Shown here: positions 12,001-35,529 of the stretch, one piece after another
Layout of the letters: each line of letters begins with the position of its first letter
How positions within the stretch are numbered: position 1 is the first letter of the stretch
Assembly (NCBI GenBank): GCA_963666425.2
Contig: OY762825.2
Coordinates: 1,856,001-1,920,000, forward strand
Origin: Bacillota bacterium
Lineage (GTDB): Bacteria; Bacillota; JAAYKD01
Direction: 5' to 3'
DNA length: 64,000 nt
The notes under the pieces: generated by a model
Database searches by the model: none
What the model saw: the letters and a program-made list of their open reading frames with translations, nothing else
Told to the model about the DNA's origin: nothing
Translations under genes and position numbers: made by a program

Positions 12001-15000
12001 CCGATCAGCATTGAGTGGACCGTTGTCCCCACCACCATCGTGGATGAATATGAAATCAAATTGGAATTGACCTTCGGCGCCCATATTCCGGTGCCTGCCT
12101 TTGGTTTCAATCCTCCTTGGGTGAATATTCCCAAAGAGGTCAATGAACCGATTGTCGTTGAAGCGAATGTGGTCAATACCGGTTTGATCGCCATTACAGA
12201 TGTGGTGGCCTCGGTCGTGCGTGCCAACAAATCGGAAACCGGCATCAGCATCATCGGCGGCGGTTATCTCGGAGAAATCGGCGCTCACAGCAGCGCGAAG
12301 ATTCGCCTGCAGGTGCAGCCCGGTGTGTATCAACTGCTGTTCAGCAAGAACGCAGCCGGCAATCCGCTGAATTACATCAAATTTGAAGGTACTTATGTTT
12401 CTTTCGATTCGGATACCGGACTGCCGATCGATCCGGCGCCGGTGATTACAGGTGTCCTGCCGCTCTATAATCCGAGTGAAACGTCTGTTACACTGCAGGT
12501 GCGTCTGCCGGAAGAAAATGCCAAAGTTGTGGAAGAAGAAGTGAAATTGCCGGAAGGGCAGATGGAAGAACTGCGCTATATCGCTCCTGCCGGCGGCAAC
12601 CGTGACGATTTGCTCAAACCGGGAGCCGATTCCGCTTACGAAATCGTGCAGCTGACTTTAAGTCAGAAAGCCACCCTGGAACGACAGGCGTTTGATGCCA
12701 CTTTAAAAATCACCAATGGTTACCCGGAATATGCTCTGCAAAATCTGCGTGTCGATGTTACGGTAACGGATGCGGATGGGAAAGATGTAACGAACAAGAA
12801 CTTTGTGATTGCTACCGGTATCAATGGCCTGACGGATTTGGATGGCAATGACAGTTTAGCTGCCGGTAAGAATATGACGGCAACCTGGCAGATCATCCCC
12901 GGCAGTGATTTGGGCGGTACATCGGTAACCGGCAAGCTCTATTACGCCAAGGCACTGATTTCCTACTATGTTAACGGCCGCCTGGTGCAAACGCAGACGG
13001 AAGGTGTGGAAATCACCATTGTGCCGCAGCCGAAACTGACACTCAATTACTATGTGCCGCATACGGTGCTTTCCAATACGCCGTTTAAACTGGCGGTCAA
13101 GGTATCGAACAGCGGCTATGGTGAAGCGAAGAATCTGATCATCGACTCCGGTAAACTGGAGATCAGCTCCAATCAAAGCGGTTTGCTGACGGACTTTGAA
13201 ATTCTGGGCAGTTCCTTTGGCAGCACGACCGGCAGCAACTTCAGACTGGAATTCGGTAACATCGGACCGGCTGTTTACAGTGAAACAACAGATTTAATCA
13301 CGAACCAAGTCACCGGCAGCTGGACACCGACCGAAGTATCCGGTTATTGGCTGGTGCGCTGGAATTTGCCGGTGGAAGCCGAAGAAAATCCTTACGAAGG
13401 CGAATTCCGTGATTTTAAAGCCACCCTGACCCACAAAGACTATAAGGGCGTGCAATTGAACCCCTTGATTGTCGGTGTGACCACCAGCATTATCGGCAAA
13501 GAAGATGTCCTGGCAGATCTCAATGCGGATGGCGCTTTGGCGGTTGTCAATGAAGGCAATACCGGCTTCCCGGATTTCCTGATGAATTTGGTTAGCGGTT
13601 TAAGGATTCCCATCTTTGTGCCTGATTCGGTCGAAACCAGCGTGAGTTATGAGACCGGCGGCAACTATCTGCAGCTGAAATCCGCCAAGCCAACGGCAGC
13701 GCTCGATTATAATTCGGTGCGTTATCAGATCATCATGCTGCCTGCTCCGGAAGGCTGCGGTAATATTTCTGCGGTCAAACGCAGCCTCAGCGCCGACGGC
13801 AGCAATCCAAGCAGCCTCTCTTTCTCCAACTACTGGAAGGACTTTGGCAATATTTACATCGTCGATCAAATCCCGGTCAGTTATGATGCCAGCGGCAGCC
13901 GGGTCTTCCTCGATTCTTGGTATACCATTGAATTTGGCAGCGGCGTCATCCTCGGCGATCTGGGTTACTCCCGTTTTGTCTACACCCTGGCGGCGCCGGG
14001 AGAAGAAGGCGGCATCCCAATTGGCGTGGAAGGCACCGGCAGCTATATCAAAGATGCAGTTTATTACGATACCGGGATTTATCCTGATCAGGGAGAGAAC
14101 GATCTCACCCTGCGCGTTCTGCTGGATAACCGTTCCAAGAACGTAGAAAACGGCAGCATCCGCTTCAGTGTGATCGATACGACTATCCCCTTGGGTGAAA
14201 ACCAGACCATCTTCAATGCGGAAGTTGCTTTTGTTAATCTGCAGCCTTATATCACCCAATATGTCTCCTGCAGCAGTTGGGTACCGGTCAAAGGCGGCGT
14301 TTATCAGATCAAAGCAGAGCTGCTGAGCGGAGGCGAGGCCACCGGACGTTTTGTCACATCGGAAGCGGTCGTCAACAGCCTGCCGTACGGCAATGCCGGC
14401 GCCGATATCGCCAATGCGGTTGTTTTGCAACCGGTCCGCTTTGATGCCAGCCGGTCTTATGACCGGGATGGCTACATCACTTCTTTCGTCTGGGATTTTG
14501 GTGACGGTGAAAGCGGTTATGGTTTGACTCCGACGCATACCTACTTGAAATCCGGTTCTTACAAAGTAAAACTCTACGTGATGGATAATAATCTTTCCAC
14601 CACCTGGCCGCCGAAGCTGGTCGGTAGTGCATTGGGCGGTGAACCCGATCCTGCGACAGTGACCGAGCAAAATGAATTCTCCGTCATGCAAATCACGGTC
14701 TTGGAAAACCGGCCGGATTTATTTGTGCAAACCATCGAATTCTCTGAATCAACACCGGCCGAGAACAGCGTCTTTACCGTGACAGCCACACTGCAGAACG
14801 GCACCTCTGAAGGAACTGCCGGCGGCTTAACTGCCACTCCGGCACCTTTCCTGGTGGGCTTCTACCTTGATGATGTCTACCGAGGCTATGTGCGCGTCGA
14901 AGATGCGATTACAGTCAACAACACCAAGGAAGTCAGTTTTGATCTGACCATGCCAGCCGGCGGCACTGCTCATAAGGTTTCTGTCATCGCCAATGACATC

Positions 15001-18000
15001 GGAAAATACATTGAAGAGGCGGATTTTGACAACAACCGGCTCGACCAGGTGATCAATGGAACGCAGACTGATTTTGCTGATTTGGCTGTAGAAAACCTAC
15101 AAGTCAGTGCAATCAGTGGGGACACGGTGCAGTGGCATGCCGGAATAACCGTGCAGGCCAAGGTGAAGAACCTCGGCAGCGCAGCGGCGGGAGCATTTAA
15201 GATCGTCGCTTACGCTAACGATACACTGATCTATTCCGCATTGGTCGATGAGCTGGCGGTAAGCGGAGAAGAAAACATTAGTTTCCCGTGGCTGCCGGAA
15301 ACGAGTGGAGATTATCAGCTGCGTCTGTTGGCTGACGGACCGTTATCTACTGTTGTAGAAATGGTGGAAGACAATAACAGTCAAACACAGACGATCAAAA
15401 ACTTAAATGTCACCTATGCCGATTTGACGGTGCAGAATGTGCGCACCAGCCTCAGCGGCAGTATTGTGCCGCAGGGGACGAATGTCGTGCTCTTTGCCAA
15501 TATTCTCAATCAGGGTAGTGCCGCCAACCGGACCGCCAGCAAAGCCTACTTCTATGTCAATAACCGCTTTATTGGTGCGGCTGAGTTTGGCAAAACAGAG
15601 GCACTTGCTGCGGGTGCTTCCACCACAATCAGTTACATTTGGAAGAACCCCGACATCGCCGCTGAGGAAATCTTAGTCATCGTCGACCCGGAAAATAAGG
15701 TCTTGGAAAGCAATGAAGCCAATAACACGGGCAGCTATTACTTCAGTTCTCCTTTAACCGTGACAGCGGCGCAGCTGCATCTGGTGGATCTGGTGACCAA
15801 TACCACTGCCGTTCAGTATGGCGACAGCGTAACCACACTGGTCAAAGTCAAAAACAGCGGTGATCGGGCAATTACGACGCCGTTTGCCACCGCCCTTTAC
15901 GTCAACAATCGCAAAGTTGGTATGGTAACCACCGATGCGATCGGTATCGGCAGTCAGGTTGAGCTGTCCTTTACCTGGAAAGCAGACCAATTGCCGACCG
16001 GGAGTTATCTGCTGCGGGCCTATACCGACAGTGAAGCCAAGCTCAACCTGACCGACCGCAGCCAAACCTACAAGAGTGCAGTTCTGAGTGTCGGGCATAG
16101 CTTAGTGCTGACACCTGTGTCCAGTGCTGCAGCTTATTCCTTAGGAGAAGCCAGCCATGTCAGTTTAGGCGTTGCCTCTTCCGCCGCTTCCTGGTCGCCT
16201 CTCGGTGATGCTGCCGTCAGCGTACAGCTTTACAGTGTCAGTGAAGGTGCTGAGCCGGTATTGACCGCAGTCGGGGAGCCGATCAATCTGGTTTATGATC
16301 CGGCAGCCGGAACCTATCAAGGAGTGGTTACCTCACCCGCCGCGGCAGGTAGTTACCGCTTACGTTTTAATGCCGTAAAAGATCTGCTGACTGCCACAAC
16401 CGAAACTGATATTGTCTACACCAATGCGTTCCAAATTAGTTTGAGCAATGCAACTGAACAGAGTTATACAATTGGGCAGAGTATCACAGCTGCAGGCACA
16501 GTGACAGATGCGAATGGCGCTGCTATTCCGGATGCAGCCGTAACAATCAGCGTGATCGGTGAAGAAACCTGGCAATTCAGCGGCAGAACCGACGCGAATG
16601 GAACTTACTCGATTGCAGTGAACCTTCCAACAGACTGCGGCGGCGCTTATACGATGAAGGCATCTGCCAGCATCGCCGGCGTGAAAAAGCAAACCGCTTC
16701 GATTGTCTTCTTTATCGACGGACTCTATCTTGCCTTGAACAGTAAAGTAACCATTGTGCAAGGCTACGATCAGATGTTGGCAGGATTTGTCACGAATCTT
16801 GGTGTGACAGCAGCAGACAATATCAGTCTTGTTGTCAGCGGATTGCCAGCAGGATTAACTATCGAACCGCTTCTCACTTTAAACGCTACTAATATTGCCG
16901 CAGAAAGCAGCCAGGAAATTCAGCTGAAGCTGAGCGCTGCCGAAACGCTGGCGGCCGGGGTCTATGAGATCACCCTAACAGCAGGGAATGCCAGCCACGT
17001 TCTGACGGTGTCGGTAGTGGCAGCCGAAGCGAAGTACTCCATCAACATCATTGGTGAAGTGGAATCGGGCGGTGATGGCTTACGCAAAGAAGCGCTGACG
17101 ATGTCGCTGCGGCAGGGAGAAATGAAAACTTCTGTGATTCAGGTCACGAACAGCGGCACCGCCAATCTAACCGGACTGACGGTCGACTGCGATCTGCCTT
17201 TTGTGCGCTTCTCGGCTACACCGGTGGACGGCTATCTGATCAAACCGGTCAACAAAGGTTACACGATCCGTGACGCGGAAGGCCGCGCTTCCATCGTCGT
17301 AGCGGTTTCTCCTTCTAACTTTACACAAACCGGTCTCTATGAAGGCAGCATCACCCTAACATCGAATGCCGGTGTTCGAAAGATTCCCATCGTGATATCC
17401 GTTGGCAGTGAACAAGTGGCCAGCTTAACCTATGAAGTGCGCAACGACAGCAATACGCCGCTGCAAGATGCAACGGTAGAACTCAGCGGTGTAGTGCAGC
17501 AAAAAGATCCGGTCAATTTCAGCGGTAAAACCGATGTCGATGGACGCATTACGTTCAGCAATATCCCTGCAGGTGCCTATCAATTAACCGCGACAGCGGA
17601 TTTGCATTCGACCCTCTCGGCAGCAGTTGATCTCCCGGCGCTGAACGATCGGCTGCCGCAAATCATAACCTTAACAAAACAACCGATGGTCTTTGGCTTT
17701 GAAGCCGCTGCGGAGGACAGTATGCGCAGCAGTTCAACCAAGAGTGTTGGCTATGACAGCGTCGTTTACAAAGCGGAACAATTGGCTGCCAGCACAGAAC
17801 CTCAGCTGCAGCCCAATCTCCCCGCGGACGAACAACAATTCTGGTATATCTCCGGCAAGATTCTCAATCGACTCTCCATCCGCAATCCGGCCGCACCAAT
17901 CACATTAACTGATCTGTCAGCGAGCGATTCTAAGCTGAAAGATGTCACTTTAGAAGTGGTATCCACCAGTAAAAACCTGCCGCTCAATGCTTTCTTGCTG

Positions 18001-21000
18001 AAGGGTGAAAGTGGCTACACACCGGTTCGCTATATTGGAGATTTGGCAGCCGGTCAAGTCATTGATTTGATCTGGAGTCTGGATATTGACCGACTCTTTG
18101 TGATGGCCAAAGTGGCAGCAGTCGGCAGCACGGGCGAATTCCAACTCACTTTCGATGGAACGAAAGTCAGCCAAGCTATGGTGGACGCGTATGTCAAGGC
18201 CAATGATCCGCTGGGAGAAGGTTCACTGCAGTTGGTCGCCGGCAGTTATACGGCAGGTGGAAACAGCTTCAATGTGAAGGTCACTGCCGGTTCAGATCAA
18301 ACCTATCGCACACCGACGGACCGGATTCCTCTCTATTTTGGCAACCAAGTCTATCTCTTTGATGCTACCATTAAGGCAAGCGGAACCAGAAGCGATAACG
18401 GAGCTACCGTTGAAACCTTGATTCCTGTGCGTGTTCGTTACCTTGCGCCTGATTATGAAATTTGGGGTTCCGGCAAACAGAACGCCAATCAGGAGGACAG
18501 TGGCTCTCAAACCACGGCTACGGATGCTTATGATGAGAATCCCGGCTTGAAACAGGAGATTCAGTTGGAAGCCGCCTTCCCGTCTGTTAACGGTCAGACA
18601 GCAAAGGGTAATTATAGTCAGAATTTCCTGAAAGAAATGGGTTATGGACTGCCGGAAGTACCGGAAGAAGCGACGAAGAATGCTGATTTGGATTTCGGTT
18701 TCTCTTCGGGAGCCGGCTTTGCGGAACAGGTTGTGGGATTGAAACTGAACTTGACCAACACATCCTCGACCTCACCGATGACCGATTTGAGTATTCGTCT
18801 ATTGCTCACCGATAACAGTTACGATGCCGAAGGCAATTTAATCAAAGGCGGTTCTCCGGTGTATCCTGCTGTCAATCTGATAGCCTCTGCCACGGGCGAA
18901 AACGCACCGGTGGTGGATGGTTATGGCATCACCCTGAGTGAATTGAATCTGGGTGAGACCTTAAAGCTGAATTATCAATTGAAGCTGGATGAGGTGCAGG
19001 ACATCTACTCTGCTATAGCGGAATTTGATCCCTCCATTGCCAAATTACTGCAGAATAAATCTTCGGGTAAGATTTACGCCCGCTTCCTCTACGAATATAC
19101 GCAGGACGGTAAGCAGCAAAGCGTGATGAGCAGCGTGCGGGAATTTGAAGTCAAGGCGAAACCAAAAGTTTACATCAGCTATGATCTGGAAGCGTATCAA
19201 AGCGATCCGAATCGGTTTACGCTGACGGCCTATGTGACCAATTTGGGCGAAGGTGCCGCCGAAGGTGTTTATGTCAGCGCACCGATCATGCCGGAAACCG
19301 AATACAAGTTCGTTGTAACGAGTGGAAATTCAACCAAAGGAACCAATTTAGGAGATGGCAAAGTCCAGCTGGGGACGATCCAGCCGGGAGAAACCGAAAA
19401 AGTTTACTTCAACCTCATAAGAATTGAAGTGACTGCCGCTCAAAAAGGAACCAAGTTGTCCTTGGGCAAACTGGCCGAATTGCCGGCGATGCCGGTCAAG
19501 AGCGAGATTGCCGGTAATCTAATCGTAGCGCCGATGAAAATGGAAGCCATGAACACCCTCAGAGCGCACGAAAACTTCCTGTCTATGCAAACCGAGTTGG
19601 ACAACCTGCAAGTCAATTTAGAAAAAGTAGTCGATAAAACGGTATCCGAGCTGGCTCGTTCGATCCTGGATCAATACGATTATGCCAGAATCCTGACCGG
19701 CGCGGTTGGGATCACCAAGGTTTATGAAATGACCAGCGGTGTCGCCAACTTAATCGGTTGGATTAAGTCGATCGCTGAACTGCCGGCGAAATTGAAAGGT
19801 GCCTTCACTTCGGCAGACGATGAGCTGAAAGAAGTGCTCAACGGCAAAGTCTTAACACCGGATGAATACAAACTTTTCGCCGCCACGCAGCAAGCTTATC
19901 AGGGCTATGGCACAAAATTACTAAATCTTTATACATCGGGAATCAGCTGGTTCAACAATTGGATCGGCAACACGCTTGATGATTATATCAATACCGCGAA
20001 AGATGTCTGGAATACTTACTCCGATGCCAAGAAGGGCAAAGCCGGCGTGGAAGCGATGGCGGATTATGAAGTCAAAGCCAATCAGGCGCTGGATACCCTA
20101 GGTAAAGCGGCCAAATTCATTTCGGATGCGGTCAATACGAAGAGCAAGAGCGAACGCACCTCCCTGACGACGCAAGGCAAGGCGGCTTTGGAAGCAGCTC
20201 AAAGCTTAATTCAGGCAGCCAGCGAGATTAAGACGAAGAATATGGCGGTTTTTGAATCGATCGCCAGCGGTTCCACCAATGGTTGGATCGGCGGAGAAGT
20301 CGATCGCTATTATCTCTCGGCAGCCAATGCTTATGTCAACGAAGTTGAATTTGCCGTGCAGGAAACCCTAAAAATCATTGCGGCGCAGATGCAGGCGATC
20401 GTTGCGGTCAATGCGTTCGAAGATGCAGCCGAGGGAATGAAAGCTTCAGCGGAAAATATGACCAAGGTCACGAAGGAAGCGCAGCAGGTGCTGGATGCAA
20501 CCAACAACATGCTGAACAATGTCGGTTATCAGCCGAACCAGTCGGTGATGGATCAGGTCAAGAACTTCCGCAGCTCCAGCACCGTCGTTGATTTTGCCAA
20601 GAGCTGGCTGACCAGTAAACTGACGATTGTGGACATGGCGGCGCTGCAGAATATTTCCAAGACTACACCGACGCTGGTCAAAAACCTGGGCAATCTGGCC
20701 ATTGCAGTCAAGACTGCCCCTGAGGAGGGATTCAGTAACGCGGAAGTAGCAGATTTGATTTTCGAATGCATCTTCCCCAATTCCACTGAGGTTGCCAAGG
20801 AAAAATACGCCTACTTCTATGATGAATTTGACGCATATGCTCCGGCCGGCGGCTCCAAAACGGCAGAATATTCTATCTATACGCTAACCCAGGCGATTAA
20901 GTTGAGCAGCACGAATGTCATCGATTTGGATGCTTATGAGAAAGCAATCAACCAATTGGCTACCAGTAAGACAACAAACAGCCAAGCGGTAATGAATGCT

Positions 21001-24000
21001 GCGGTATCATCGGCAACCCGTAAGAGCAATGTCTTTAACATGCTGGAGCAAACACGGGCTGATCTTGCGCTGATAGGGGAGATGATTCAAGGCTATCTTG
21101 ACAATGACCTTACCGCAACAGCCTACTATCCTTCCGGTCAAGTCCTGGATTACCTGAAATCCCTGAATACGCAGTTAAAGTCGATGTATGCGAACCCCAA
21201 CGGCAGCCCTATCCCGATTACGCGGGTCGGGCGCTACCGCAACCTCTGGGTTTATACTGCCGATGGCATGGATCTGGTGCCGGATCAGATCACGCTCTTT
21301 GAAGTTTATCAGCTGCAGCAGGAAGTCGACGCTTCCATTGCGGAAGGATTCGATGCCATTTATCAGCGTCACATTGTGAACATGATGAAAGATATTGAGA
21401 CGAGGTTAACCTTGGCCAGCACAGCCTTTGCCTTTATGGGCAGTGTTTCGGGTGCCTCCGGTTCCCTTTCCGCCATCGCAGCCACGGCCGCTCAGATGAT
21501 CAATACTTCTTCCTACGTCACAGCGCTGGATTCGCTCGATGCGACCATCCTAACCAAACTCTCCAAACAAATCGGCGAATTGGCTGTTAACACAACTCTG
21601 ATGGTCAATAAAGAAACATCCATTGCTTCAAATTTACTGGATGTTTTCAATACGCTGGAGAACTGGCGTAAAGTCGATCCGGAATTACCGTTGACCGTCC
21701 TGTCACAGCAAGCCACGGATGTGGCGCTGCAGGAGGGTTACACCGAAGGTCAAACCACTGTCGCAATTTCCATCCGCAACGAGCATACCGGTTCGGTAAC
21801 CATCGCTCCCACTGTGGAAATTTACGATAGCTATGGCTTGGTGAATTCCGTTACTTTGGCCAGCCAAACGCTGCTGCCGGGTCAGACCGGTCAATTCAGC
21901 GGTTTGGTTGCAGTGCCGCACAATGCTTTAAGAGATGCCGGCGGCTACATTGCGGTCTTTACCTTCGAAGCTTCTGAAGCTGAGACCATGACCATTTCCC
22001 CGACTTACGGGCCTTACACGGCTGCCTTCAATGCCCACAGGGCGGCAGCTTTAGCCCAGATGAAGAGTGAGACGGCAGATGCCGTGCAAACCTCACAACC
22101 GCTGGGTGGTTATCTGGCTGGCAAAATTGAGGCGGTTATGAACGGTCAAGTGGTGGAAGTCGCTGAGGTCGTGGACAGTCAAACAGTCACGATCAGTAAA
22201 TCAGCCGGCACGATCCTGCGTATTTTCTGCGCCGCTATCAGCGGCAGCGGGGTCAGCCTGAGCGTCAGCGACAGCCAAGGGCAGCCTGTGAGTGCTTTTG
22301 CCGATCTGATCAATCCAGCGGATTTCGTTTTAATCAGCGATCCGGCAGCCGGAATTTATACGGTGACGGTGAGCAACGGTGCGGCAAGCGAACAGGGCTT
22401 TGCGCTGCAGGTGGTGGAACATCCGAATTACGGCACGGTTGCCGGTATCTATACGCAGTATACCAACGTTCAGGCAGCACAAAACTCAAGCGGCGAATGG
22501 CAGGCAACCATTCCGATCAACCTATATGAAACCGGTTTGCTGCATGATCTGACTGGAATTACCTTCACGGTCAGCGAATTAAGCCTTCAGAGCGATGCGG
22601 CGATAAAAATCGTCGGCAGCGAGATGACGATTCAGAATGCGAAAAATGAAGTGCAGAGTCAGCCGTTTACCATTCCGGCCGGGACTGGCAAACAGCTCGC
22701 ATTGGTGATCAAACCGAACCCGGACCATGCCGACGGCATCTATACCGGCAGCTTAAGTATTCATTTGACGGCGGAAGCGTTTAATACCGGTTATTCAACA
22801 CACAGTGGCTGGACTGCAAACGGGGATGGAAGTGATACTTTAATCATTCCGCTTGCTTTGAAACTGGATACCGCTGTGCCGAATGCGCCCAGCTTTACGG
22901 CAGAAGTGAATGCCGCTGCCGCCAACACCGTTACGATCAGCGGCACGGCAATTCCGGGAGAAAGAATCTATATTTATACAACAGAACCGGGCAGTGAGCT
23001 GGTAGATGCAGCCGATCAGGTTTATGCTGTGCTCACGGCGGATGCCAATGGCAGCTATACCATGGATTTGGTCTTGGAAATGACGGAAGAATTCTTATCA
23101 GCAACCAGCGGCAGCCTGACCCTGTATGCCAAAGCGGCAGCAGTCAACGGCGTGCTGAGCGAGGCCAGTGCAGCGGTAAGCGTCAACATCGATTATTATG
23201 ATACCACCGCCCCGCAGATCACCCTATTATCCCCCTATGCCGGTGTGGAACTAAGCAACCCGGTCAGCCAAATTCGCTTTGAAGTTTTCGATGGTGAAAG
23301 CGCAGTCGTTGAGGAAAGCATTCAAGTGGATGTCAATGGCAGCGGTATGAACGCTGCCTGGAACCGCACGGAGAAACTCTACGAAGTGAATCTGGCGACA
23401 CCGCTGACCGGCGGCACCAATAATCTGCGCATCAGCGCGGAGAATGAAGTAGGTTTGCTCGCAACGGAGACGTATGATGTAATCCTTGGCGATGTCATTA
23501 CGGCTGTGTTCACAGTAATGGAAGCTTCCACGCCGATCGCAGGAGCTACCGTGAGCATTAACGGAGTAGATTTGACAACCGATCTCAACGGAACCGTTTC
23601 CACCGAGCTTGCGGCAGGAAATTATACGTATACAGTCAGCAAGACCGGTTATCTCAGCGTGAATGATTCGAAAAATATTCAGGCGGATGACCGCAGCATC
23701 ACAGTTCTCTTACAGAAATCTGCTAACATTACCTATACCATCAGCAGTGCTGCGAATGCCGTAGCCAATGCCAAAGTGGAAATCAAAACCAAAGCGGCAG
23801 TGTTGGTGACCTCGGGTTATACCAACGCCGCCGGTCAACTGACACTGCAGCTGCCGCTGGCAACCTATGACTGCACCATCAGCAAGGTGGGCTACCTCAG
23901 TCAAACCGCCGAAATTGCAGTGACCCAGGATGCCGCAAAGGCAGTCAGTTTGGCGAATGATACGACGGCCAACTTCCTGGTGACCATCAAGCTGCAAAAT

Positions 24001-24933
24001 CAGCTCAATACGGTGGTAGAAAAAACGGAAGACAGCAATCACCTGAAAGTCATGCTGGGAGCAGCAGAGTGGATCGTGACTGGTAATCAAACCGCACAAT
24101 TGCTCAGCAATGGCGACTACAGCCTGATCATCAGCGCGGATGGCTATCAAGCGGTCACCCTGCCGGTCACGGTAGCGGGTGCCGCGGTAACCGAGACAGT
24201 TGTTTTAATGTCTGCCGGTGCTGCGATTAATTACACAGCAGAAACGCTCAACTTAGCGGCAGGTTATCAAGCCAATACCGCAGCGGATTTCAGCGGAGTT
24301 GCGGTAGCCAGCGGGGCGAATTTTGCTCCCGGCTCGCTTCTCTATATCAAACAAGAAGCAACCGGCGCAATTGTTCCTCTCAAGTCGCAGGAACGGCCGA
24401 GTGCGCCGGCCAGTCTGGCTGTCAGTCAAACAGCTGACAATACGGCAACGGTTACCCCAATCGCCGGCGCAGAATATCGTATCGACGAGGACAGCTGGCA
24501 GGATACGAATGTCTTCTCTGCGGTCAGCAATTTCACAAGCCATTCCTTTGCCGCTCGAATCAAGGCAACCGGAACTTCCTACGCCTCCTTAGCAACAGCA
24601 GCCGACGCGCTGATTCTCTATCCGCAGACGATTTATACGCGGGCACTGGAGCTTGATCCAACCGCCCTGACCACGCAGGTGACGCTGGGCAACCACTCCG
24701 GAGCAGATGCCAATCTCATGTTGGTGATTGCGATTTACAATGCCAACGGCAGAATGTTGGAAATGAAGACGGAGAGCGGTATCAATTTGGTCAATGCGAC
24801 GGAAGTGGAAAAGGTGATTACGTTCAAAGCACTGCCGCAGGGCGGACGCTGCAAAGTCTTCCTGATCGATACGCTCAGCAGTTTACAGCCGCTGGCCGAC
24901 AGCAGCGAAGGCAGTATCAGTTTGGTTGGATAA
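1..24933 (+). CDS. Giant multidomain surface protein (>8,300 aa; Fn3, Ig-like/Big, CARDB, PKD, carboxypeptidase-regulatory-like domains), 5'-partial
   Basis: Frame is open from base 1 (GGC GCA GTC AAC CGC ACT TCG ATG) and there is no signal peptide at the ATG at 22, so the true start is upstream of the window. Fn3 signatures (xLxW...YxIYR...YxD...YxYxVxAxD), DxxxP linkers, two PKD motifs (YAWDFGN, FVWDFGDG) and CARDB motifs (PDLxV...NxG...ExxExNN). Confidence 0.9.
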   Translation, partial: GAVNRTSMSEAIPNFAWDTTNTTGNKNTDVRLKAILTDFTSLKSAVSVAEVTDAYAYSFTIDNAPTPVPTDFTVSAGPGKITLNWTAAAYQYANVYRSTTLAGLSAAVEPFYHGYFYSAERSYLDYFYAAADTALVYYYAVTTIDSRGIESSKVVCSSPVSPLADTIAPDLYLSGAGSYVSLASDFYYNATDNIALAALEATLTAENTAVTTIVDLDFTDHRTTAYGYITNDRMAELGLSGGAYTVTLTATDSYGNQYSESSSFIYDITPPLLPATLTAVSLAGKVRLAWTASVSTDVQSINIYRSTAAEGSFDYYTSVAGDQIKFDNYDAGNVGVTFYYKIKLLDHAYNESVFSEMVSAAVGDFTPSMRIAAQPVIGRTTTIYFSGFQPYETIDFYLDQSATAFDTGYSSYETDTEQEAQLAVPYDMTGTHTVKAIGRTSEKIALLRFTVGSYAPSFTLSAGSVAVGGSLNYSIVGYADYKYVYFYLQPDDAGTEYGHYLTYQYYSQTEISNSFQIPADTLPGIYTIRAVQIDSGLTAYATVTITAPQVSLVINDSSPTLGQYVYFTASGFLPYETVRFYLADLPGYAQQSGYTGQASYSVQLPGSITGGSFVTLAVGQTSGLAAELTVPISSAIPGITLPAIVQPGSVFTVSGSDFTPYSNVKLLVDGVEKTTVYSYEGNVSINYSFADTAAEGRHAIELLDTSGSKAGGSVVLLRPSLTLTLSAEPTLGEDLTLIATGFRNNETVAFTMNGVAQGNAVADASGIAALTIHALDVTSSSYFFTAAAVSGSVTKGWRSNGPDNELSIAYTGAMQPDVLFHFTVAQLAEGEAIRVYLNHQLYALNPAVTAAADGTASFSVTLPAGYSSDSLNLTVMGETNSLWQTATVPVHQTTPVLTVTPSSPTAGSVLDFSVSGFAPGETAALWFNAKPVASAAADGSGAAVLSYTPDIAAIAGDYPVVVAGSRSNHYLKKTITLNSYVFTVNAPATADPGSRVTLAASGLVEGETLHLLFDQTCISGSGIIAAAGSAALDYTIPPYLAAGNHSIRFVLAKSAVLIEKSIYITDLTPQLAASQSGTETKASLNLSGFLPGEGVLVYFDQRDVTANTTTAEGSSSFVISETGALTLIYNFPASITSGDHSFAVIGKASQRAAYSTLAVEVTGQRLTVANSEGRAEGKPGDLLTLHADGFTASVDVSVLFGEINLTPANHTTDAIGAYSATIVLPLGTAEGLHAIQIVAASVSELAQTTLRVDTTAPAVPELRATPAKRQITLAWDKSADVDTTSYLIYRKLSTENADSYVLTDTLDAAVNTVTHSLTEGSHPLAVDVNYHYIIKARDRLGNLSVASAALTAALLPDTAAPVLEYMGNPYAGYRNGFYVLQGSAHFTPTISDDRQASTVLLEYSKTGTNYTALPAVSLTYQGQSYYSGLFTFRGDITLDTLAITNQPNFGDGLYTIRLSVTDAAGKTAVRTQQYYIDNTKPAAPTNLAAAAGPKMVKLTWNYGEISDVNYFLLQFGPDLEHLTTYYLSASTRSYDLVNLLPATEYIMQLAARDDVNNISDAVTVRATPIIDTEKPILPLDTISPAANSRISKNLNLQLKATDNVGLSRFLLSIAPFGSTEFTSIDPAEINSYIYSNIQYLYLENLSYQGNYTLRLIAVDSADLQSDPVEITYQFDTQAPQLTALTATAISGGIMISWAKAADADLYFYYLLRKAPGETDYSYYRYISPSYYAQTSGLIAYLDYAVTAGETYAYKISAYDDLNNSTNPAEATAVSAQPGAFNLTLSLTPTQDVKPGAVLSLTATGLSPYESAVFSIDGLEIFTAYANEKGNLLYDWSYIKNTTSGEHTLQMQSSSSNQLKSVNFTAVATKLAAPGNVNAAAGIMNISLSWDAVGAAYGYQLYRKADEGDYLLLVDKIYGRTYTDYAVAKDIVYSYQVAAFDRYNAIGEKSIEAIAKPDPDQIAPEIAVFVSNRDGNLLTLVATVSDDIRLAKVDFAYKPAGTDDSAYQMIESVSISGSKKTAAASCSFDTSALTQGNYTLRAIVWDGANNQSTPRTLSTTISTSLPHAPQNLTAVAGQMRIALRWEAPGVIEEPIARYNIYRKVGEADFVLLSTTTLTNYTDLAVGLATAYTYQVKAVNVFGYEGPEVRMTTPVTALADTSVPVISGFAPAANSRLGGQINMSVIASDNVAVKQIDFFVVTANGLLTLGRSETGSISFNSVNYQTEGDLVIKARVRDAAGNQAEQTVTYKVDNVAPTAPLATAASGELSIQLTWSLPLMPTDLSYYNVYVLANNTTPEQNTTPPVAKVTTLFYNYKVGTTASFYITAVDSLDNESIASNIVTATPGTDRTAPVILSLTPNNQAIVRADTNVRADATDNVAVNSYLFEVIPMLQDTDTGSLKIMPAAAWTELSLQPTTPTIKTGSFVWNTQDSIITAEGLQARYPDGYYTLRVTAKDMIGNASLKTEVVKVANHPPIAPDGLRVDAGEWRLMVSWKPMSGSDVAGYKVERQIEGESGFTEVAETTSNVYIETGVSPLSLYSYRVAMINDLGNLGPWAAISNQRALEETSTPSILSMSPLQDQRFNSALNLKILAQDEVAIEQIKLSYYRIGDQSSGEIPAEAVYTEIAVLSGASIVYGNVETSENDVFGTDCYTAAYRWTTEALAEGLYALKAVAYNKGNQTAFIVKKYYKDTQPPAAPGGVTLTDPGIGQTLNLTWTSGADVLRYEIYRSTNAEAVFTYAEPAGYLKLPATLSPTFSDTGLTDGMTYYYHIVTVDAAGNVSNPSSRVSGTPTAKSDLGIQAIYTDPAVLILGRNNSLKASMRNDGTARATGVVTFYYFDGTSDIAVGSVNVDYAANTGGETSLVWLAPLTLSASVTVKATVTTNPGSDDISAENNQFTRSSIATNQPPTAVITLPAEPYESGFLLSFNANASSDVGGRIVSYAWDFGNSKKAEGAAATSQYTLPGEYTIRLTVKDNNGAETTAVQTIIVGDKRPDLYVDSIRWTPSETKEGDVVTITAVIGNKGFGNAALGFLTGFYIDNQYMGYSKCDVNLNNISLARGETREVSFNYVAAAGVHVVKVVANDILDTLKETDKGNNNRSAVLSNQQISFADVGVESIVWVPDGTVFDTQQAFAYRTVIKNHGSASAANFGVSLYIDDEYRGRQMVPNLAVGAEMTLNYYVAPAVGIHKVEIKVDDLNPVLIEENTTNNNANLITEDFTVIYPEITVGNIIWKPTETTLTEGTSITFEAKLINNSTINITKNFLVHVAMDGRVFKTITVYGLKAGEVKDVLTKWSASSGEHSFKVIVDAKKAVIDPDTTVEKSITIPKLSILYPNLHISNVSYSPLSVETNKMVSFLVSINNQSVATAFKRFNIGLYVDGKAVAGSTIDGIRGYSTVPVVINWTPETAGLHTIQILADSFGELTMSAATEGIRRSWTTSLQVSEALVLKTNPNKEAQDEDFMAVLYTSGDGFIPLSASLRHASISSQNLGPDEDASVSYTLKKGSVLVSGFEGQMAFNSSNRQFEYQLPITTELTTGTYTLEFLGSCGTEILSSICNIMIVKETTVTLETNKDTYLLGETIRVSGRMTVGGQPVANERVVLDFQLQPRLTDPLRGYDAKGNEIMMIWQAEEIVFAVTDLNGNYEYKFTPFTGEAGDWTILAFAYQNALGGGAPPKEVKVWGMAASPASLTLVATKNSQFSKEIKFRHAAPNYAEGDPLTSVSAILVATALNNGVSATIDTSAMARSLAPGAETGVILNVSAGLNCDDTATYEIVFSSAQGATCKTRVTINLRPATPIPVTDVKSISIGVNPADSVSRIVTVTNKGKGYLDGLKITLPGSIPWVTAGSIGSTRLAPNESTTFTVEFSPGVGVALGQYQDKLVVSDATGKFYANVALSAEISSAKTGGISFRVTDDVGTKVGNADITIISKEPYTSMAGGVETQYYPNFTTRTDANGVAQFYEKPLGDYDLVVMAAGRKKFVSQCSVMPSTGAPFMDILLQNEPISIEWTVVPTTIVDEYEIKLELTFGAHIPVPAFGFNPPWVNIPKEVNEPIVVEANVVNTGLIAITDVVASVVRANKSETGISIIGGGYLGEIGAHSSAKIRLQVQPGVYQLLFSKNAAGNPLNYIKFEGTYVSFDSDTGLPIDPAPVITGVLPLYNPSETSVTLQVRLPEENAKVVEEEVKLPEGQMEELRYIAPAGGNRDDLLKPGADSAYEIVQLTLSQKATLERQAFDATLKITNGYPEYALQNLRVDVTVTDADGKDVTNKNFVIATGINGLTDLDGNDSLAAGKNMTATWQIIPGSDLGGTSVTGKLYYAKALISYYVNGRLVQTQTEGVEITIVPQPKLTLNYYVPHTVLSNTPFKLAVKVSNSGYGEAKNLIIDSGKLEISSNQSGLLTDFEILGSSFGSTTGSNFRLEFGNIGPAVYSETTDLITNQVTGSWTPTEVSGYWLVRWNLPVEAEENPYEGEFRDFKATLTHKDYKGVQLNPLIVGVTTSIIGKEDVLADLNADGALAVVNEGNTGFPDFLMNLVSGLRIPIFVPDSVETSVSYETGGNYLQLKSAKPTAALDYNSVRYQIIMLPAPEGCGNISAVKRSLSADGSNPSSLSFSNYWKDFGNIYIVDQIPVSYDASGSRVFLDSWYTIEFGSGVILGDLGYSRFVYTLAAPGEEGGIPIGVEGTGSYIKDAVYYDTGIYPDQGENDLTLRVLLDNRSKNVENGSIRFSVIDTTIPLGENQTIFNAEVAFVNLQPYITQYVSCSSWVPVKGGVYQIKAELLSGGEATGRFVTSEAVVNSLPYGNAGADIANAVVLQPVRFDASRSYDRDGYITSFVWDFGDGESGYGLTPTHTYLKSGSYKVKLYVMDNNLSTTWPPKLVGSALGGEPDPATVTEQNEFSVMQITVLENRPDLFVQTIEFSESTPAENSVFTVTATLQNGTSEGTAGGLTATPAPFLVGFYLDDVYRGYVRVEDAITVNNTKEVSFDLTMPAGGTAHKVSVIANDIGKYIEEADFDNNRLDQVINGTQTDFADLAVENLQVSAISGDTVQWHAGITVQAKVKNLGSAAAGAFKIVAYANDTLIYSALVDELAVSGEENISFPWLPETSGDYQLRLLADGPLSTVVEMVEDNNSQTQTIKNLNVTYADLTVQNVRTSLSGSIVPQGTNVVLFANILNQGSAANRTASKAYFYVNNRFIGAAEFGKTEALAAGASTTISYIWKNPDIAAEEILVIVDPENKVLESNEANNTGSYYFSSPLTVTAAQLHLVDLVTNTTAVQYGDSVTTLVKVKNSGDRAITTPFATALYVNNRKVGMVTTDAIGIGSQVELSFTWKADQLPTGSYLLRAYTDSEAKLNLTDRSQTYKSAVLSVGHSLVLTPVSSAAAYSLGEASHVSLGVASSAASWSPLGDAAVSVQLYSVSEGAEPVLTAVGEPINLVYDPAAGTYQGVVTSPAAAGSYRLRFNAVKDLLTATTETDIVYTNAFQISLSNATEQSYTIGQSITAAGTVTDANGAAIPDAAVTISVIGEETWQFSGRTDANGTYSIAVNLPTDCGGAYTMKASASIAGVKKQTASIVFFIDGLYLALNSKVTIVQGYDQMLAGFVTNLGVTAADNISLVVSGLPAGLTIEPLLTLNATNIAAESSQEIQLKLSAAETLAAGVYEITLTAGNASHVLTVSVVAAEAKYSINIIGEVESGGDGLRKEALTMSLRQGEMKTSVIQVTNSGTANLTGLTVDCDLPFVRFSATPVDGYLIKPVNKGYTIRDAEGRASIVVAVSPSNFTQTGLYEGSITLTSNAGVRKIPIVISVGSEQVASLTYEVRNDSNTPLQDATVELSGVVQQKDPVNFSGKTDVDGRITFSNIPAGAYQLTATADLHSTLSAAVDLPALNDRLPQIITLTKQPMVFGFEAAAEDSMRSSSTKSVGYDSVVYKAEQLAASTEPQLQPNLPADEQQFWYISGKILNRLSIRNPAAPITLTDLSASDSKLKDVTLEVVSTSKNLPLNAFLLKGESGYTPVRYIGDLAAGQVIDLIWSLDIDRLFVMAKVAAVGSTGEFQLTFDGTKVSQAMVDAYVKANDPLGEGSLQLVAGSYTAGGNSFNVKVTAGSDQTYRTPTDRIPLYFGNQVYLFDATIKASGTRSDNGATVETLIPVRVRYLAPDYEIWGSGKQNANQEDSGSQTTATDAYDENPGLKQEIQLEAAFPSVNGQTAKGNYSQNFLKEMGYGLPEVPEEATKNADLDFGFSSGAGFAEQVVGLKLNLTNTSSTSPMTDLSIRLLLTDNSYDAEGNLIKGGSPVYPAVNLIASATGENAPVVDGYGITLSELNLGETLKLNYQLKLDEVQDIYSAIAEFDPSIAKLLQNKSSGKIYARFLYEYTQDGKQQSVMSSVREFEVKAKPKVYISYDLEAYQSDPNRFTLTAYVTNLGEGAAEGVYVSAPIMPETEYKFVVTSGNSTKGTNLGDGKVQLGTIQPGETEKVYFNLIRIEVTAAQKGTKLSLGKLAELPAMPVKSEIAGNLIVAPMKMEAMNTLRAHENFLSMQTELDNLQVNLEKVVDKTVSELARSILDQYDYARILTGAVGITKVYEMTSGVANLIGWIKSIAELPAKLKGAFTSADDELKEVLNGKVLTPDEYKLFAATQQAYQGYGTKLLNLYTSGISWFNNWIGNTLDDYINTAKDVWNTYSDAKKGKAGVEAMADYEVKANQALDTLGKAAKFISDAVNTKSKSERTSLTTQGKAALEAAQSLIQAASEIKTKNMAVFESIASGSTNGWIGGEVDRYYLSAANAYVNEVEFAVQETLKIIAAQMQAIVAVNAFEDAAEGMKASAENMTKVTKEAQQVLDATNNMLNNVGYQPNQSVMDQVKNFRSSSTVVDFAKSWLTSKLTIVDMAALQNISKTTPTLVKNLGNLAIAVKTAPEEGFSNAEVADLIFECIFPNSTEVAKEKYAYFYDEFDAYAPAGGSKTAEYSIYTLTQAIKLSSTNVIDLDAYEKAINQLATSKTTNSQAVMNAAVSSATRKSNVFNMLEQTRADLALIGEMIQGYLDNDLTATAYYPSGQVLDYLKSLNTQLKSMYANPNGSPIPITRVGRYRNLWVYTADGMDLVPDQITLFEVYQLQQEVDASIAEGFDAIYQRHIVNMMKDIETRLTLASTAFAFMGSVSGASGSLSAIAATAAQMINTSSYVTALDSLDATILTKLSKQIGELAVNTTLMVNKETSIASNLLDVFNTLENWRKVDPELPLTVLSQQATDVALQEGYTEGQTTVAISIRNEHTGSVTIAPTVEIYDSYGLVNSVTLASQTLLPGQTGQFSGLVAVPHNALRDAGGYIAVFTFEASEAETMTISPTYGPYTAAFNAHRAAALAQMKSETADAVQTSQPLGGYLAGKIEAVMNGQVVEVAEVVDSQTVTISKSAGTILRIFCAAISGSGVSLSVSDSQGQPVSAFADLINPADFVLISDPAAGIYTVTVSNGAASEQGFALQVVEHPNYGTVAGIYTQYTNVQAAQNSSGEWQATIPINLYETGLLHDLTGITFTVSELSLQSDAAIKIVGSEMTIQNAKNEVQSQPFTIPAGTGKQLALVIKPNPDHADGIYTGSLSIHLTAEAFNTGYSTHSGWTANGDGSDTLIIPLALKLDTAVPNAPSFTAEVNAAAANTVTISGTAIPGERIYIYTTEPGSELVDAADQVYAVLTADANGSYTMDLVLEMTEEFLSATSGSLTLYAKAAAVNGVLSEASAAVSVNIDYYDTTAPQITLLSPYAGVELSNPVSQIRFEVFDGESAVVEESIQVDVNGSGMNAAWNRTEKLYEVNLATPLTGGTNNLRISAENEVGLLATETYDVILGDVITAVFTVMEASTPIAGATVSINGVDLTTDLNGTVSTELAAGNYTYTVSKTGYLSVNDSKNIQADDRSITVLLQKSANITYTISSAANAVANAKVEIKTKAAVLVTSGYTNAAGQLTLQLPLATYDCTISKVGYLSQTAEIAVTQDAAKAVSLANDTTANFLVTIKLQNQLNTVVEKTEDSNHLKVMLGAAEWIVTGNQTAQLLSNGDYSLIISADGYQAVTLPVTVAGAAVTETVVLMSAGAAINYTAETLNLAAGYQANTAADFSGVAVASGANFAPGSLLYIKQEATGAIVPLKSQERPSAPASLAVSQTADNTATVTPIAGAEYRIDEDSWQDTNVFSAVSNFTSHSFAARIKATGTSYASLATAADALILYPQTIYTRALELDPTALTTQVTLGNHSGADANLMLVIAIYNANGRMLEMKTESGINLVNATEVEKVITFKALPQGGRCKVFLIDTLSSLQPLADSSEGSISLVG

Positions 24934-26297: not shown

Positions 26298-27176
26298 TCA
26301 GTAGATTTCTTTGGCGTCACGGGGCAGTTCGTGAATATGACGGACATAAGACCGACTGTTGCGCGCTAATTTTTGATCATAAGTAAAATGCAGCCGTGCC
26401 GCCACTTCTTGGGCGGTTTCCTCGAACAAGTCCATCATCGTAAATAATGCCTGCCAAAGTGCGGCTTCCTCTCCGCTGGGGTAGGTTGCCAGCAATTTTT
26501 GCCAGGTTTGCGGCGGTAAGTAATTCTTCAGATATTTACCGGATTTACCGGTCGAAACCGCGAAATCGGTTTCTGTACCGACCAGCCAGTTCAGCATGGT
26601 GATCAATTTGAACTTCGGATATTGAAAACAATCCAGGGCATAAAGCAATTCATTGCGCCAAAGCCCTTTGGCGATATAAGGCGCCACCCAATAAAAATCG
26701 ATACAACGGCAATCAAAAATTGCCTGCGTTGGCCGCTGCACGAGATAATCGCCGTCATTGGCAGCCGGGATTTTCGGCAGCAGCGCATCTTTATCGAGCA
26801 GGACAACGGTCAGACTGTCGCTGCCGAATTCTTTTCGCATCGCCGCTTTGGTCAGGATAGAAAGATCGATGCGGTTGCCGTCGGTAAATTGCATCAGCCA
26901 AGCATAACGCTGTGAGAAATCGATGGCTTTTCCCAATATTTGATCCAATTGATCCGGTTCTTCCATGATCAGGATCTCGCCAAAACGGTCGAGCCAAGCA
27001 GGATCGGCTAAAAAGGAAGCGGTCTCCGTTACCACATAAACGATATCAAAATCCTGAAAGATATCTTTCGGAACCTTGACATTCGCCCGGGAGCCGTTGA
27101 GATAAACCGCACGAATTCTTTCATCGTTTCTGGCTGTGCTGAGAAGCAAATCCAGCATTTTCTGTTCATTGCGCAT
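26298..27176 (-). CDS. aadE: Aminoglycoside 6-adenylyltransferase (ANT(6)/AadE/AadK family)
   Basis: MRxExxM...DERIRAVxLNGSRAN...KDxFQDFDI, GNRIDL, YIAKGLWRxE and SxGKxGKY are family motifs. RBS TAAGGAG precedes the ATG at 27176. Confidence 0.88.
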   Translation of the reverse strand: MRNEQKMLDLLLSTARNDERIRAVYLNGSRANVKVPKDIFQDFDIVYVVTETASFLADPAWLDRFGEILIMEEPDQLDQILGKAIDFSQRYAWLMQFTDGNRIDLSILTKAAMRKEFGSDSLTVVLLDKDALLPKIPAANDGDYLVQRPTQAIFDCRCIDFYWVAPYIAKGLWRNELLYALDCFQYPKFKLITMLNWLVGTETDFAVSTGKSGKYLKNYLPPQTWQKLLATYPSGEEAALWQALFTMMDLFEETAQEVAARLHFTYDQKLARNSRSYVRHIHELPRDAKEIY

Positions 27177-27304
27177 TGGTTTACTCCTTATTTTGAACTG
27201 GATATCACTCATTGATTATTCGTGCCGTTTGCTGCGGGTTCCTTCTCTCGGACGCTGCCACAGCCGGAATCAGCTTGATGACAAGCGGCAGCGTCAGCGA
27301 TGAA

Positions 27305-27979
27305 TCAGTTTTTAGAGCTGCACGAAAAATTTAACCATTGAGCAGGGCAATCTGCCTTCTCTTGGATTTCGTTAAGCAAACGAGCAGTATGAAAACCATC
27401 GCAGACCGCATGATGTGCACGGATCGAAAAAGGCAGCAGCATTCGTTTACCTTGAGCAAAATACTTACCGGTTGTGAAAATAGGCAGCAGATAAGCCATA
27501 CTCTGGGGCAGATGCAGGTTGAATTCGCTGAAACTGATCCAGGGTAGAGCAGAAAAAGGAAAAACATTCGCCGGGGTGTTCTCTTGGGCTGTTAATTTGT
27601 GCACATTTCCGAACTGCGCTGTATTCTCCAAATAAGATTGATAAAATTGAGCAAAATCTCTCTGAAAAGGGGTCCAGATACTGGTAAAGGTTTCACTTTC
27701 CGGTTGGAACCAGGTATAAGAGGGGTGAAGTATATCCCAATAACCCAGAACACCATTTTCGTCGAGACATGTGCGAAATTCACTATGATTGTTGACCGCA
27801 CAGGCTGTGAGGTAGATGCTGACAGGGTAAAATTTGATTTGCTTTTGCTGACAGGTTGTCAGTAAAGTGGTGATGTCCAAATTGACCGTGATATTATAAG
27901 TGCAAGCCACTTCCTGCAGATAATGCTGATAATAGGGTGTCCGCGGCCAGCCATTGCAATCGATTGGATGGAATGTCAT
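27305..27979 (-). CDS. cat: Type A chloramphenicol O-acetyltransferase family protein
   Basis: Catalytic HHAVCDGFH motif, SALPWISF, PIFTTGKY; 224 aa. Confidence 0.9.
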   Translation of the reverse strand: MTFHPIDCNGWPRTPYYQHYLQEVACTYNITVNLDITTLLTTCQQKQIKFYPVSIYLTACAVNNHSEFRTCLDENGVLGYWDILHPSYTWFQPESETFTSIWTPFQRDFAQFYQSYLENTAQFGNVHKLTAQENTPANVFPFSALPWISFSEFNLHLPQSMAYLLPIFTTGKYFAQGKRMLLPFSIRAHHAVCDGFHTARLLNEIQEKADCPAQWLNFSCSSKN

Positions 27980-35523: not shown

Positions 35524-35529
35524 GCTGAT

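Follow-up and report, generated by a model that had tools for sequence, protein, structure and literature searches.

What does a helix-prone segment of some 700 amino acids (aa) do inside a giant protein that is otherwise recognisable only as a chain of beta-sandwich domains? The question is raised by a 64,000-nucleotide (nt) stretch of DNA of a Bacillota bacterium (assembly GCA_963666425.2, contig OY762825.2, positions 1,856,001 to 1,920,000 of the forward strand), which was analysed as a whole and is called here the window. The stretch opens within a giant gene, and the segment in question, referred to as the island or, together with its borders, as the helical module, occupies residues 7909-8613 of the encoded protein. 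Sequence comparison indicates that the module is a genuine, conserved functional unit that lies outside Pfam, NCBIfam and the PDB sequences and belongs to a rare family of giant fibres.

The giant frame is uninterrupted over its whole part of the window (8,310 codons) and continues beyond the window in the 5' direction. The start lies 4,158 nt upstream, the first ATG gives a protein of 9,696 aa, and the frame from stop to stop comprises 9,721 codons. At the N-terminus, basic residues, a hydrophobic core and a junction of the type V-M-A/Q-E come first and an acidic linker rich in Pro and Thr comes next, and this arrangement of a signal-peptide-like start and a linker is common to the N-termini of the orthologues. 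Pfam matches along the protein belong to beta-sandwich families alone (CARDB, PKD, fn3, Big_x, CarboxypepD_reg, PEGA and one CHB_HEX_C). The internal repeats detected by BLAST are restricted to approximately aa 1,300-4,700, the stalk domains being highly diverged, and no tandem repeats were found in the DNA of the giant gene.

A preliminary description, made from the letters of this DNA alone, had proposed that the island lies among beta-sandwich modules, and this proved right: CARDB, PKD, fn3, Big, CarboxypepD_reg and PEGA domains are found on both sides of it, while no family matches nt 19450-21801 at E<=0.01. The borders given at that time are equally correct, i.e. the island begins with HENFLS at nt 19567 and ends with WRKVDP-ELP at nt 21690, and so is the position of its uncharged stretch. 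The figure of ~6,500 aa preceding the island is valid in the numbering of the window, whereas in the whole protein ~7,900 aa precede it. About 1,070 aa remain to the C-terminus.

Helix content was estimated crudely, by Chou-Fasman propensities. By this measure no other alpha-leaning tract of the giant protein is as long as the island, and the alignment-averaged values are 48% helix and 11% strand, which supports the notion of an alpha-helical island in a crude way. Heptad-like periodicity, again a crude measure, had also been claimed and is present: 12.3% of the 28-aa windows in the island are heptad-like, as compared to 1.7% in shuffled sequences (none out of 200 shuffles reaches the value of the island); for the 6,513 aa before the island the figure is 1.3%, and the longest heptad-like run is ~46 aa. 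The composition agrees only in part with the label 'Ala/Lys/Glu-rich' attached to it earlier. Lys is enriched (6.5 vs 3.5% in the comparison sequence), but an enrichment in Ala (12.4 vs 11.0%) or Glu (5.9 vs 4.8%) is not clear; Gly and Pro are depleted. For the stretch at nt 19690-19764 (ILTGAV...GWI), once thought to be amphipathic, the helical moment is low (muH 0.23, mean H 0.50), and it is only weakly amphipathic.

Conservation and anatomy of the module

The relatives of the island are few and of one kind. An exhaustive HMMER search of 1.84 billion representative proteins gave 19 matches at E<=1e-3, five of which cover the entire query at 29-30% identity within proteins of 1,757-5,082 aa, and a word-based search retrieved one more relative that is 60% identical. 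When sequence collections were scanned with alignment A2, 15 loci in genomes, of which 13 are full-length, and 9 in metagenomes were retrieved; coverage of the 727-aa piece analysed extends over at least residues 1-722, at similar length, in 13 out of 15 and 6 out of 9 of these, respectively. All relatives are giant collinear proteins or fragments of such, and the genome loci all come from metagenome-assembled genomes of uncultured Bacillota, Clostridia or Oscillospiraceae, many of them from the rumen. In its own genome the module is present in a single copy. It is found in 5 out of 6 genomes of its own family (the sixth genome is 80% complete), in none of the 4 other genomes of the order, which is identical with the whole GTDB class and holds 10 species genomes, in 6 out of 401 genomes of a sample of the phylum and in 1 out of 14 genomes in the order of the outlier G273. 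The patchy spread in other classes fits transfer or repeated loss. The frames that host the module were always open in the surveys of the family and of the phylum sample, and their lengths are 8,742-9,721 aa.

It had been suggested that the segment might be swapped among homologues. This was rejected, as the relatives are collinear and the position of the island is fixed. Two of them, P0007 and P0014, are 41.9% and 35.2% identical to the window protein over 4,722 and 4,629 aligned positions, respectively; in the five relatives at ~30% identity the island (24-40%) and the flanking beta domains (33-45%) are both conserved; and the distance from the island to the stop is 940-1,530 aa in the 13 open frames whose ends fall within the available sequence.

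Within the island, it is the ends that are constant. About 170 aa at its beginning and 230 aa at its end are kept in all relatives, even in the remotest ones (P0013, P0014, P0019, L025/P0024 and G273), while the part between them defies alignment and differs in length. Whole islands accordingly fall into three classes of 501-505, 725-742 and 1,053-1,202 aa, the second of which is the main clade and includes the window, and the slot in the middle measures ~110 aa, 330 aa (window) or 650-785 aa. The same gradient is seen in the five relatives at ~30% identity, where the middle is 24-28% and the C-subdomain 36-40% identical to the window. Columns that are at least 90% identical make up 69 out of 727, and aromatic residues account for 19% of those as compared to a background of 8%. 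In the C-subdomain the conserved columns cluster in three motifs, YYPS, R.GRYR.LW.Y and WRKVDPELP (Table 1), and the W, R, K, D, P, L and P of the last motif are invariant in all rows of alignments A4 (21/21) and A5 (18/18).

Table 1. Features of the giant gene and of its helical module (positions in the window)
Feature	Position	Strand	Remarks
Giant gene, part in the window	1..24933	+	Frame, Pfam, orthologue N-termini
Beta-sandwich domain preceding the island	19150..19539	+	CARDB-like by eye only; ends in conserved ...APMKME; kept in relatives
Helical module, one non-repetitive unit	19540..21690	+	Island residues 1-717 of the 727-aa piece analysed
Conserved N-end of the module	19567..20049	+	Island residues ~10-170; DKT.SEL.RS...Y.Y motif; Gly/Ala/Thr stretch at nt 19690-19764
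Variable middle	20050..21021	+	Island residues ~171-494; helix-prone here, no recognisable domain
Conserved C-subdomain	21022..21720	+	Alignment A5, 233 aa; best conserved part of the module
YYPS motif	21124..21135	+	YYP invariant
R.GRYR.LW.Y motif	21223..21255	+	Conserved; aromatic and basic residues; search pattern that retrieved relatives
Charge-free Gly/Ala/Ser hairpin	21406..21501	+	Two apolar arms and a turn; whole uncharged run 41 aa
WRKVDPELP motif	21664..21690	+	Border with the next beta domain; holds an Asp-Pro bond
Conserved beta domains after the island	21691..22920	+	Window aa 7241-7640; identity 41-45% in five distant relatives; no genomic paralogue

The module is not a repeat array. 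An hhalign comparison of 8 segments of the island revealed no internal repeats, the two positive pairs being overlapping cuts, and arrays of the FIVAR, GA or spectrin-like type were rejected on this ground. The beta domains on both sides were likewise sought elsewhere, and no paralogue was found in the rest of the protein or in the genome; the domain that precedes the island has no Pfam match of its own.

The contents of the slot differ conspicuously in two long relatives, L025 and P0019, in which the middle of the island contains a metallo-beta-lactamase fold (Pfam Lactamase_B, E 6e-13 and 9e-8, respectively; L025:953-4117, i.e. residues ~369-627 of protein P0024, and residues ~3,900-4,150 of P0019). 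There is also a match to NCBIfam ComEC_Rec2 (TIGR00361) with an E value of 2e-25, under the curated cut-off. The order of the motifs is permuted, with the second half coming first: F.GD, HHGS, (YGHP) and RTD precede GQGD, H.D.DH and NNSS.VL. H.D.DH occurs in both long forms and GQGD in L025/P0024 only, while NNSS.VL was matched by script in L025/P0024 and a similar stretch can be read in P0019. The extracellular domain of ComEC is reported to be a metal-dependent nuclease (PMC8579336). The middles of the two relatives resemble this domain in their GQGD-like, H.D.DH, HHGS, YGHP and RTD motifs and differ from it in being circularly permuted and inserted in the helical module of a surface fibre. 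No motifs of the ComEC type are found in the middle of the window protein.

Searches for known counterparts were negative. The island has no match, as a sequence or as a profile, in Pfam, NCBIfam, PHROGs or the PDB sequences, and the C-subdomain has none among the PDB sequences at E<=10. When 14 members were compared with Pfam at E<=1, 32 families were matched in all, and there is no toxin family among the best 25 of these 32. A PDB profile match to tropomyosin (E 0.0095) was attributed to coiled-coil composition and not to homology, and a lead from the ESM Atlas was dropped, as its best scores of 0.79-0.80 (viral hypothetical proteins, DUF4765) are at the level of chance. For PF15962 the genome yielded no match, and since the same search was also silent in all 14 control genomes, this is uninformative. 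An origin from phages or plasmids was rejected, as no match was found in phages, plasmids or viral contigs (PHROGs best E 0.14; no tblastn match in 50,697 phage records). Neither a stand-alone or differently fused C-subdomain nor a protein of 116-410 aa with profile A5 was found, which is weak evidence, as the searches were word-limited and covered proteins of 116-2,000 aa only. In the literature, queries by general terms yielded no description of such a module; sequence motifs cannot be searched in this manner, and absence from print is not established by it.

The charge-free hairpin

The most unusual part of the C-subdomain consists of two apolar arms of ~11-13 aa on either side of a turn of Gly, Ser and Pro, in which indels of 0-4 residues occur. 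It stands at the same site in all rows of the alignment (21 rows with four duplicates, i.e. 17 distinct sequences) and is retained in every relative, across 22-65% identity. Charged residues make up 3% of the hairpin columns as compared to 22% in the rest of the C-subdomain (18 sequences; 17% in the window's own sequence), and none of the other 31-column windows (145 in total) falls below 11.7%. The conservation index of the hairpin is 0.48 vs 0.65 in the rest of the subdomain. The uncharged run is the third longest of the protein, which has 3 runs of at least 40 and 7 runs of at least 30 residues in its 9,696 aa, and shuffled islands reach a run of 41 aa in 13 out of 1000 cases.

The preliminary description spoke of a hydrophobic, uncharged stretch. 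The lack of charge is real, but strong hydrophobicity is not found: the maximum of the hydrophobicity measure KD19 is 1.25 in the window, under the threshold of 1.6, and 1.21-1.71 over the 21 rows, with at least 1.6 in 3 rows (2 distinct). The free energy of membrane insertion over 19 residues, calculated with the Hessa scale, is +4.77 kcal/mol for the window hairpin and +2.9 to +7.3 over the 21 rows; the window value is comparable to those of several beta segments elsewhere in the protein, as opposed to +1.92 for the signal peptide.

Two pore-forming proteins were used as calibrators. The tongue of ClyA has a KD19 maximum of 1.93, an insertion energy of +3.2 kcal/mol and an uncharged run of 27 aa, and colicin E1 (aa 1-502 only) has 2.04, -0.6 kcal/mol and at least 29 aa, respectively, as opposed to 1.25, +4.8 kcal/mol and 41 aa in the window hairpin. 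The proportion of large hydrophobic residues is also lower in the hairpin (0.32) than in ClyA (0.41) and colicin E1 (0.52), whereas that of small residues (0.63) comes near the value of the ClyA tongue (0.56). Profile comparisons by hhalign gave probabilities of 0.20% (A3) and 0.44% (A5) against E. coli HlyE; with colicin E1 (aa 1-502, all but the last ~20 aa) the values were 0.21% (A5) and 0.15% (A3). Glycine-zipper patterns ((G/A/S)xxxGxxxG or GxxxGxxx(G/S/T)) occur in 10 out of 21 rows, in differing positions, and GxxxG in 15 out of 21. A conserved zipper was rejected on these grounds, and the module differs in this respect from the glycine-zipper membrane-active proteins CdzC/D, TelE and Tde1. 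Patterns of the small-xxx-small type number 1-13 per row. The likeness to pore-formers is, as far as sequences can tell, an analogy of pattern, and membership in their families is unsupported.

Possible functions of the module

The reading that we favour, tentatively and with somewhat less than even confidence, is that the module may be a soluble platform for display or binding on the fibre, in which the charge-free hairpin would form the core of a C-terminal framework. The two conserved ends would pack as a constant framework beside the flanking beta domains, and the chain would leave and re-enter this framework around a variable slot for a payload. The slot would hold ~110 aa in some relatives, a helical insert of 330 aa here, and a permuted ComEC-type metallo-hydrolase in two distant relatives. 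The hairpin would belong to the C-terminal framework, most likely as its apolar core, and would be neither a membrane anchor nor a constitutive pore. We read it as an element of a soluble core because its KD19 values are modest, its insertion energy is positive in all 21 rows and it is less hydrophobic than ClyA and colicin E1. That the module is something other than a spacer is suggested by the lack of internal repeats, the invariant columns rich in aromatic residues, and the flanking domains that are unique in the genome. The surroundings of the gene also speak for the platform, as nothing toxin-like is found there: the neighbours are housekeeping genes or vary among the relatives.

The giant protein can be compared with the fibrillar adhesins and other giant Ig-repeat surface proteins of Gram-positive bacteria (excerpts of PMC9210967), of which the Mobiluncus adhesin of 7,651 aa is an example (PMC10619420). 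The window protein shares with them its length, its export, a beta-sandwich stalk and one non-repeat functional region. It differs in that this region is helical, contains no adhesive Pfam family and is situated at 82-89% of the length instead of at the N-terminus, and no anchor of the SLH or LPXTG type was found in the window's protein.

Several points weigh against the platform. The searches brought to light no ligand, partner or anchor for the protein. The hairpin is kept in composition and not in sequence, and its turn has indels, a pattern that would also fit segments exposed to lipid. The length of the uncharged run falls within the colicin range of 31-49 in the window (41) and in 13 out of 21 rows (10 out of 17 distinct), the others having 15-30. 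Finally, it is from patterns of conservation that a buried hairpin and a contact between N-end and C-subdomain are deduced, and 'platform' is in itself a weak functional statement.

The same hairpin could, alternatively, be latent. The C-subdomain would then be an 'inside-out' bundle, similar to the channel domain of colicins or the head of ClyA, whose shielded hairpin enters the membrane of a neighbouring cell on contact; it could also help to deliver the metallo-hydrolase in those relatives that carry one. We consider this unlikely, though several observations are in keeping with it. Channel-forming colicins have 31-49 consecutive uncharged residues near the C-terminus, with an H8-H9 hairpin of 15 + 16 residues, which in the soluble protein is surrounded by eight amphipathic helices (excerpts of PMC2585860). 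The window module fits this hallmark with its run of 41 aa in a helix-prone subdomain, ~70 aa before the end of the latter. Taking the channel domains of colicins E1, Ia and A together, the likeness extends to a helix-prone region of ~200 aa, to the position of the long run near the C-terminal end and to its division by a short turn into arms of ~12-16 aa. A buried hairpin would not discriminate a pore-former from a soluble spacer, since the hairpin of colicins, too, is hidden as long as the protein is soluble. At the same time, there is no sequence or profile similarity to the colicins, the hydrophobicity is lower and the surroundings are less charged (17-22% vs 31%). The module lies mid-chain in a Sec-exported monoderm protein of 9,696 aa, with ~1,070 aa following it, as opposed to the C-terminus of a plasmid-borne bacteriocin, and no immunity gene was found beside the giant gene: none follows it, and the neighbours vary in the relatives.

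The ClyA family (ClyA/HlyE, Hbl, Nhe, MakA/B/E and Smh/Ahl) offers a similar mixture. Its members have helix-prone stretches joined by an apolar Gly/Ala/Ser segment of ~30 aa, as does the window module, and the hydrophobic tongues of ClyA, Hbl-B and NheC are ~30 aa long according to excerpts of PMC3769298. Export by Sec is possible in some members, signal regions being mentioned for NheA and Hbl-B in the same excerpts. As regards a tongue, the window protein does have an uncharged segment of 41 aa, but its KD19 (1.25, and 1.21-1.71 over the 21 rows) is lower than the ~1.8 expected by that source. On the other hand, the hhalign probabilities are those given above (0.2-0.4%), and HlyE or Bacillus_HBL matches are absent from the window protein at E<=0.01 and from the best 25 of the 32 families matched by the 14 members. 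Moreover, proteins of the ClyA type stand alone at 300-400 aa, whereas the module has ~720 aa with a variable middle and no partner genes.

Further support for latent insertion comes from the presence of the hairpin in all relatives, down to 22% identity, from the small-residue content near that of the ClyA tongue, and from the enzyme inserted in the same module of two relatives. Gly-rich apolar segments reportedly drive contact-dependent killing by Tde1 and TelE. They do so in CdzC/D as well (excerpts of PMC5380434). Against it stand, in addition to the low hydrophobicity, the failure of profile comparison and the lack of any toxin family as described, the zipper pattern without fixed positions and the distance of ~1,000 aa that separates the module from the SLH anchors in the relative P0013. 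A more elaborate form of the idea sees in the module a contact-dependent delivery device of monoderm anaerobes, i.e. a translocation unit similar to that of colicins or to diphtheria T, built in a giant fibre, which would put its hairpin into the membrane of a neighbour and carry exchangeable cargo in its central slot (a permuted ComEC-type metallo-nuclease in some lineages, a helical cargo here). We regard this as improbable.

Self-association has little more than a slender chance in our view. Here amphipathic helices and the apolar hairpin would bundle fibres or build a lattice at a fixed height above the wall, and the heptad-like periodicity in excess of chance, the constant position relative to the C-terminus and the small-xxx-small patterns, which favour tight packing of helices, are all in keeping with it. 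There is, however, no long unbroken coiled coil, as the longest heptad-like run of ~46 aa demonstrates, and a variable payload slot would be unexpected in a pure bundling element.

We give an equally slender chance to the possibility that the module is a passive helical spacer or hinge without a specific function. The searches revealed no known family, partner or ligand, and long helical stretches do occur in giant surface proteins of other bacteria. The Giant1-5 proteins of Apilactobacillus kunkeei are a case in point (excerpts of PMC12863079): like the window protein they are giant extracellular proteins of Bacillota with helical and beta-sheet parts, predicted only in both cases. However, their rod is a long array of parallel helical repeats, while the window protein has a single non-repetitive module in a beta-sandwich rod, and no homology of the module to Giant1-5 was seen in any search. 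Against a spacer also stand the single copy, the invariant aromatic and basic motifs, the conserved position, the hairpin kept over 22-65% identity and the enzyme inserted in relatives.

The least probable alternative concerns the Asp-Pro bond of the WRKVDPELP motif. Such bonds are labile in acid and are the type of bond cut in self-processing modules of the FrpC type, where the reaction depends on Ca2+ and is carried out by the following domain. By analogy to this 'clip-and-link' process, cleavage of WRKVD-PELP by acid or autocatalysis would free a distal part of ~8,600 aa from a C-terminal part of ~1,080 aa; the invariance of the motif in the alignments and the existence of Asp-Pro self-processing in RTX proteins (excerpts of PMC7078468) speak for it, yet no SPM-like domain is evident, with only beta-sandwich Pfam matches after the bond (no comparison with an SPM sequence was made), and Asp-Pro is also a common helix-end or linker motif, which leaves this as a very remote prospect.

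Anchoring, neighbouring genes and significance

The producer is most likely a monoderm cell, because neither Omp85 nor LpxC was found in its genome, which is 98.5% complete; for the same reason, anchoring of the fibre in an outer membrane of the producer itself was rejected. The 3.2-Mb genome contains 11 stop-to-stop frames of at least 2,000 aa, one sortase and 45 SLH matches, which are mostly in other giant open reading frames (ORFs) and none of which is in the ORF that bears the island. A C-terminal sorting domain shared with other proteins was rejected as well, as the last 200 aa of the giant protein have no match among the other ORFs of the genome. In the relatives, P0013 ends in three SLH domains, and P0005 has a sub-threshold dockerin match (E 4.7e-4). 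If the C-terminus is the anchored end, then the island would be located ~1,000 aa from the wall and not at the far tip.

Other giant proteins show different arrangements. The window contains a second giant ORF (40995-53621, + strand; 4,208 aa) with SLH domains spread along its length, not at one end only, and a weak FIVAR match. In the locus L031 (G273:C4:1-9000, - strand) the giant ORF continues behind the island with near-identical modules of ~90 aa in tandem and is cut off by the end of the contig, with no SLH domain in the part present.

Among the neighbours of the giant gene there is no conserved immunity-like or operon-partner gene. Upstream there are housekeeping genes (an F420-ligase-like gene and two CNNM/CorC transporters), and downstream a terminator-like hairpin is followed by a convergent gene for an MGDG-synthase-like glycosyltransferase, which is kept only within the family; distant relatives have different neighbours. 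Two genes downstream of the giant gene (26298-27979, - strand), a streptomycin-type aminoglycoside adenylyltransferase (PF04439, E 1.6e-109) adjoins a chloramphenicol acetyltransferase (PF00302, E 1.8e-77), and the adenylyltransferase is found at the same place in the relative L002. Farther downstream (33608-37308, - strand), genes for a MacB-type permease, an ABC ATPase and a 592-aa HlyD-family protein with a PASTA-like stretch adjoin an SLH protein and an M14 peptidase of 1,147 aa, in an apparently monoderm cell. At 57662-59963 (- strand) two overlapping ORFs together encode the molybdopterin-binding subunit of a xanthine-dehydrogenase-type enzyme: 58050-59963 ends at MoCoBD_2 position 137 and 57662-58291 has positions 132-282, which points to a frameshift that is either genuine or due to a sequencing error.

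DNA of the stretch was found in sequencing runs from landfill, wastewater, sediment and sludge. There is also a hint of transcription of the island region, as contigs from RNA libraries of two studies fall on parts of nt 18,697-22,957, i.e. on the island and its flanks. The contigs X18 and X19 match at 90-99% identity or more in 18 and 15 out of 30 bins, respectively, and X20 at 95% or more in 4 bins; bins that are not covered carry no meaning, and DNA carry-over or relatives may explain the RNA contigs.

Giant surface proteins are, to our knowledge, common in uncultured anaerobes of digesters and the rumen, while we know of almost no studies of their working parts. They make up a large share of the small genome analysed here, and in the largest among them the helical module is the only part that is clearly not stalk. 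Evolution has filled its slot in various ways, including a permuted enzyme that resembles a nuclease. If the hairpin is membrane-active, the module would be a contact-dependent effector of new architecture in cells of the Gram-positive type; if it is not, the module would be a candidate head for ligand binding or display, and could explain what these fibres attach to.

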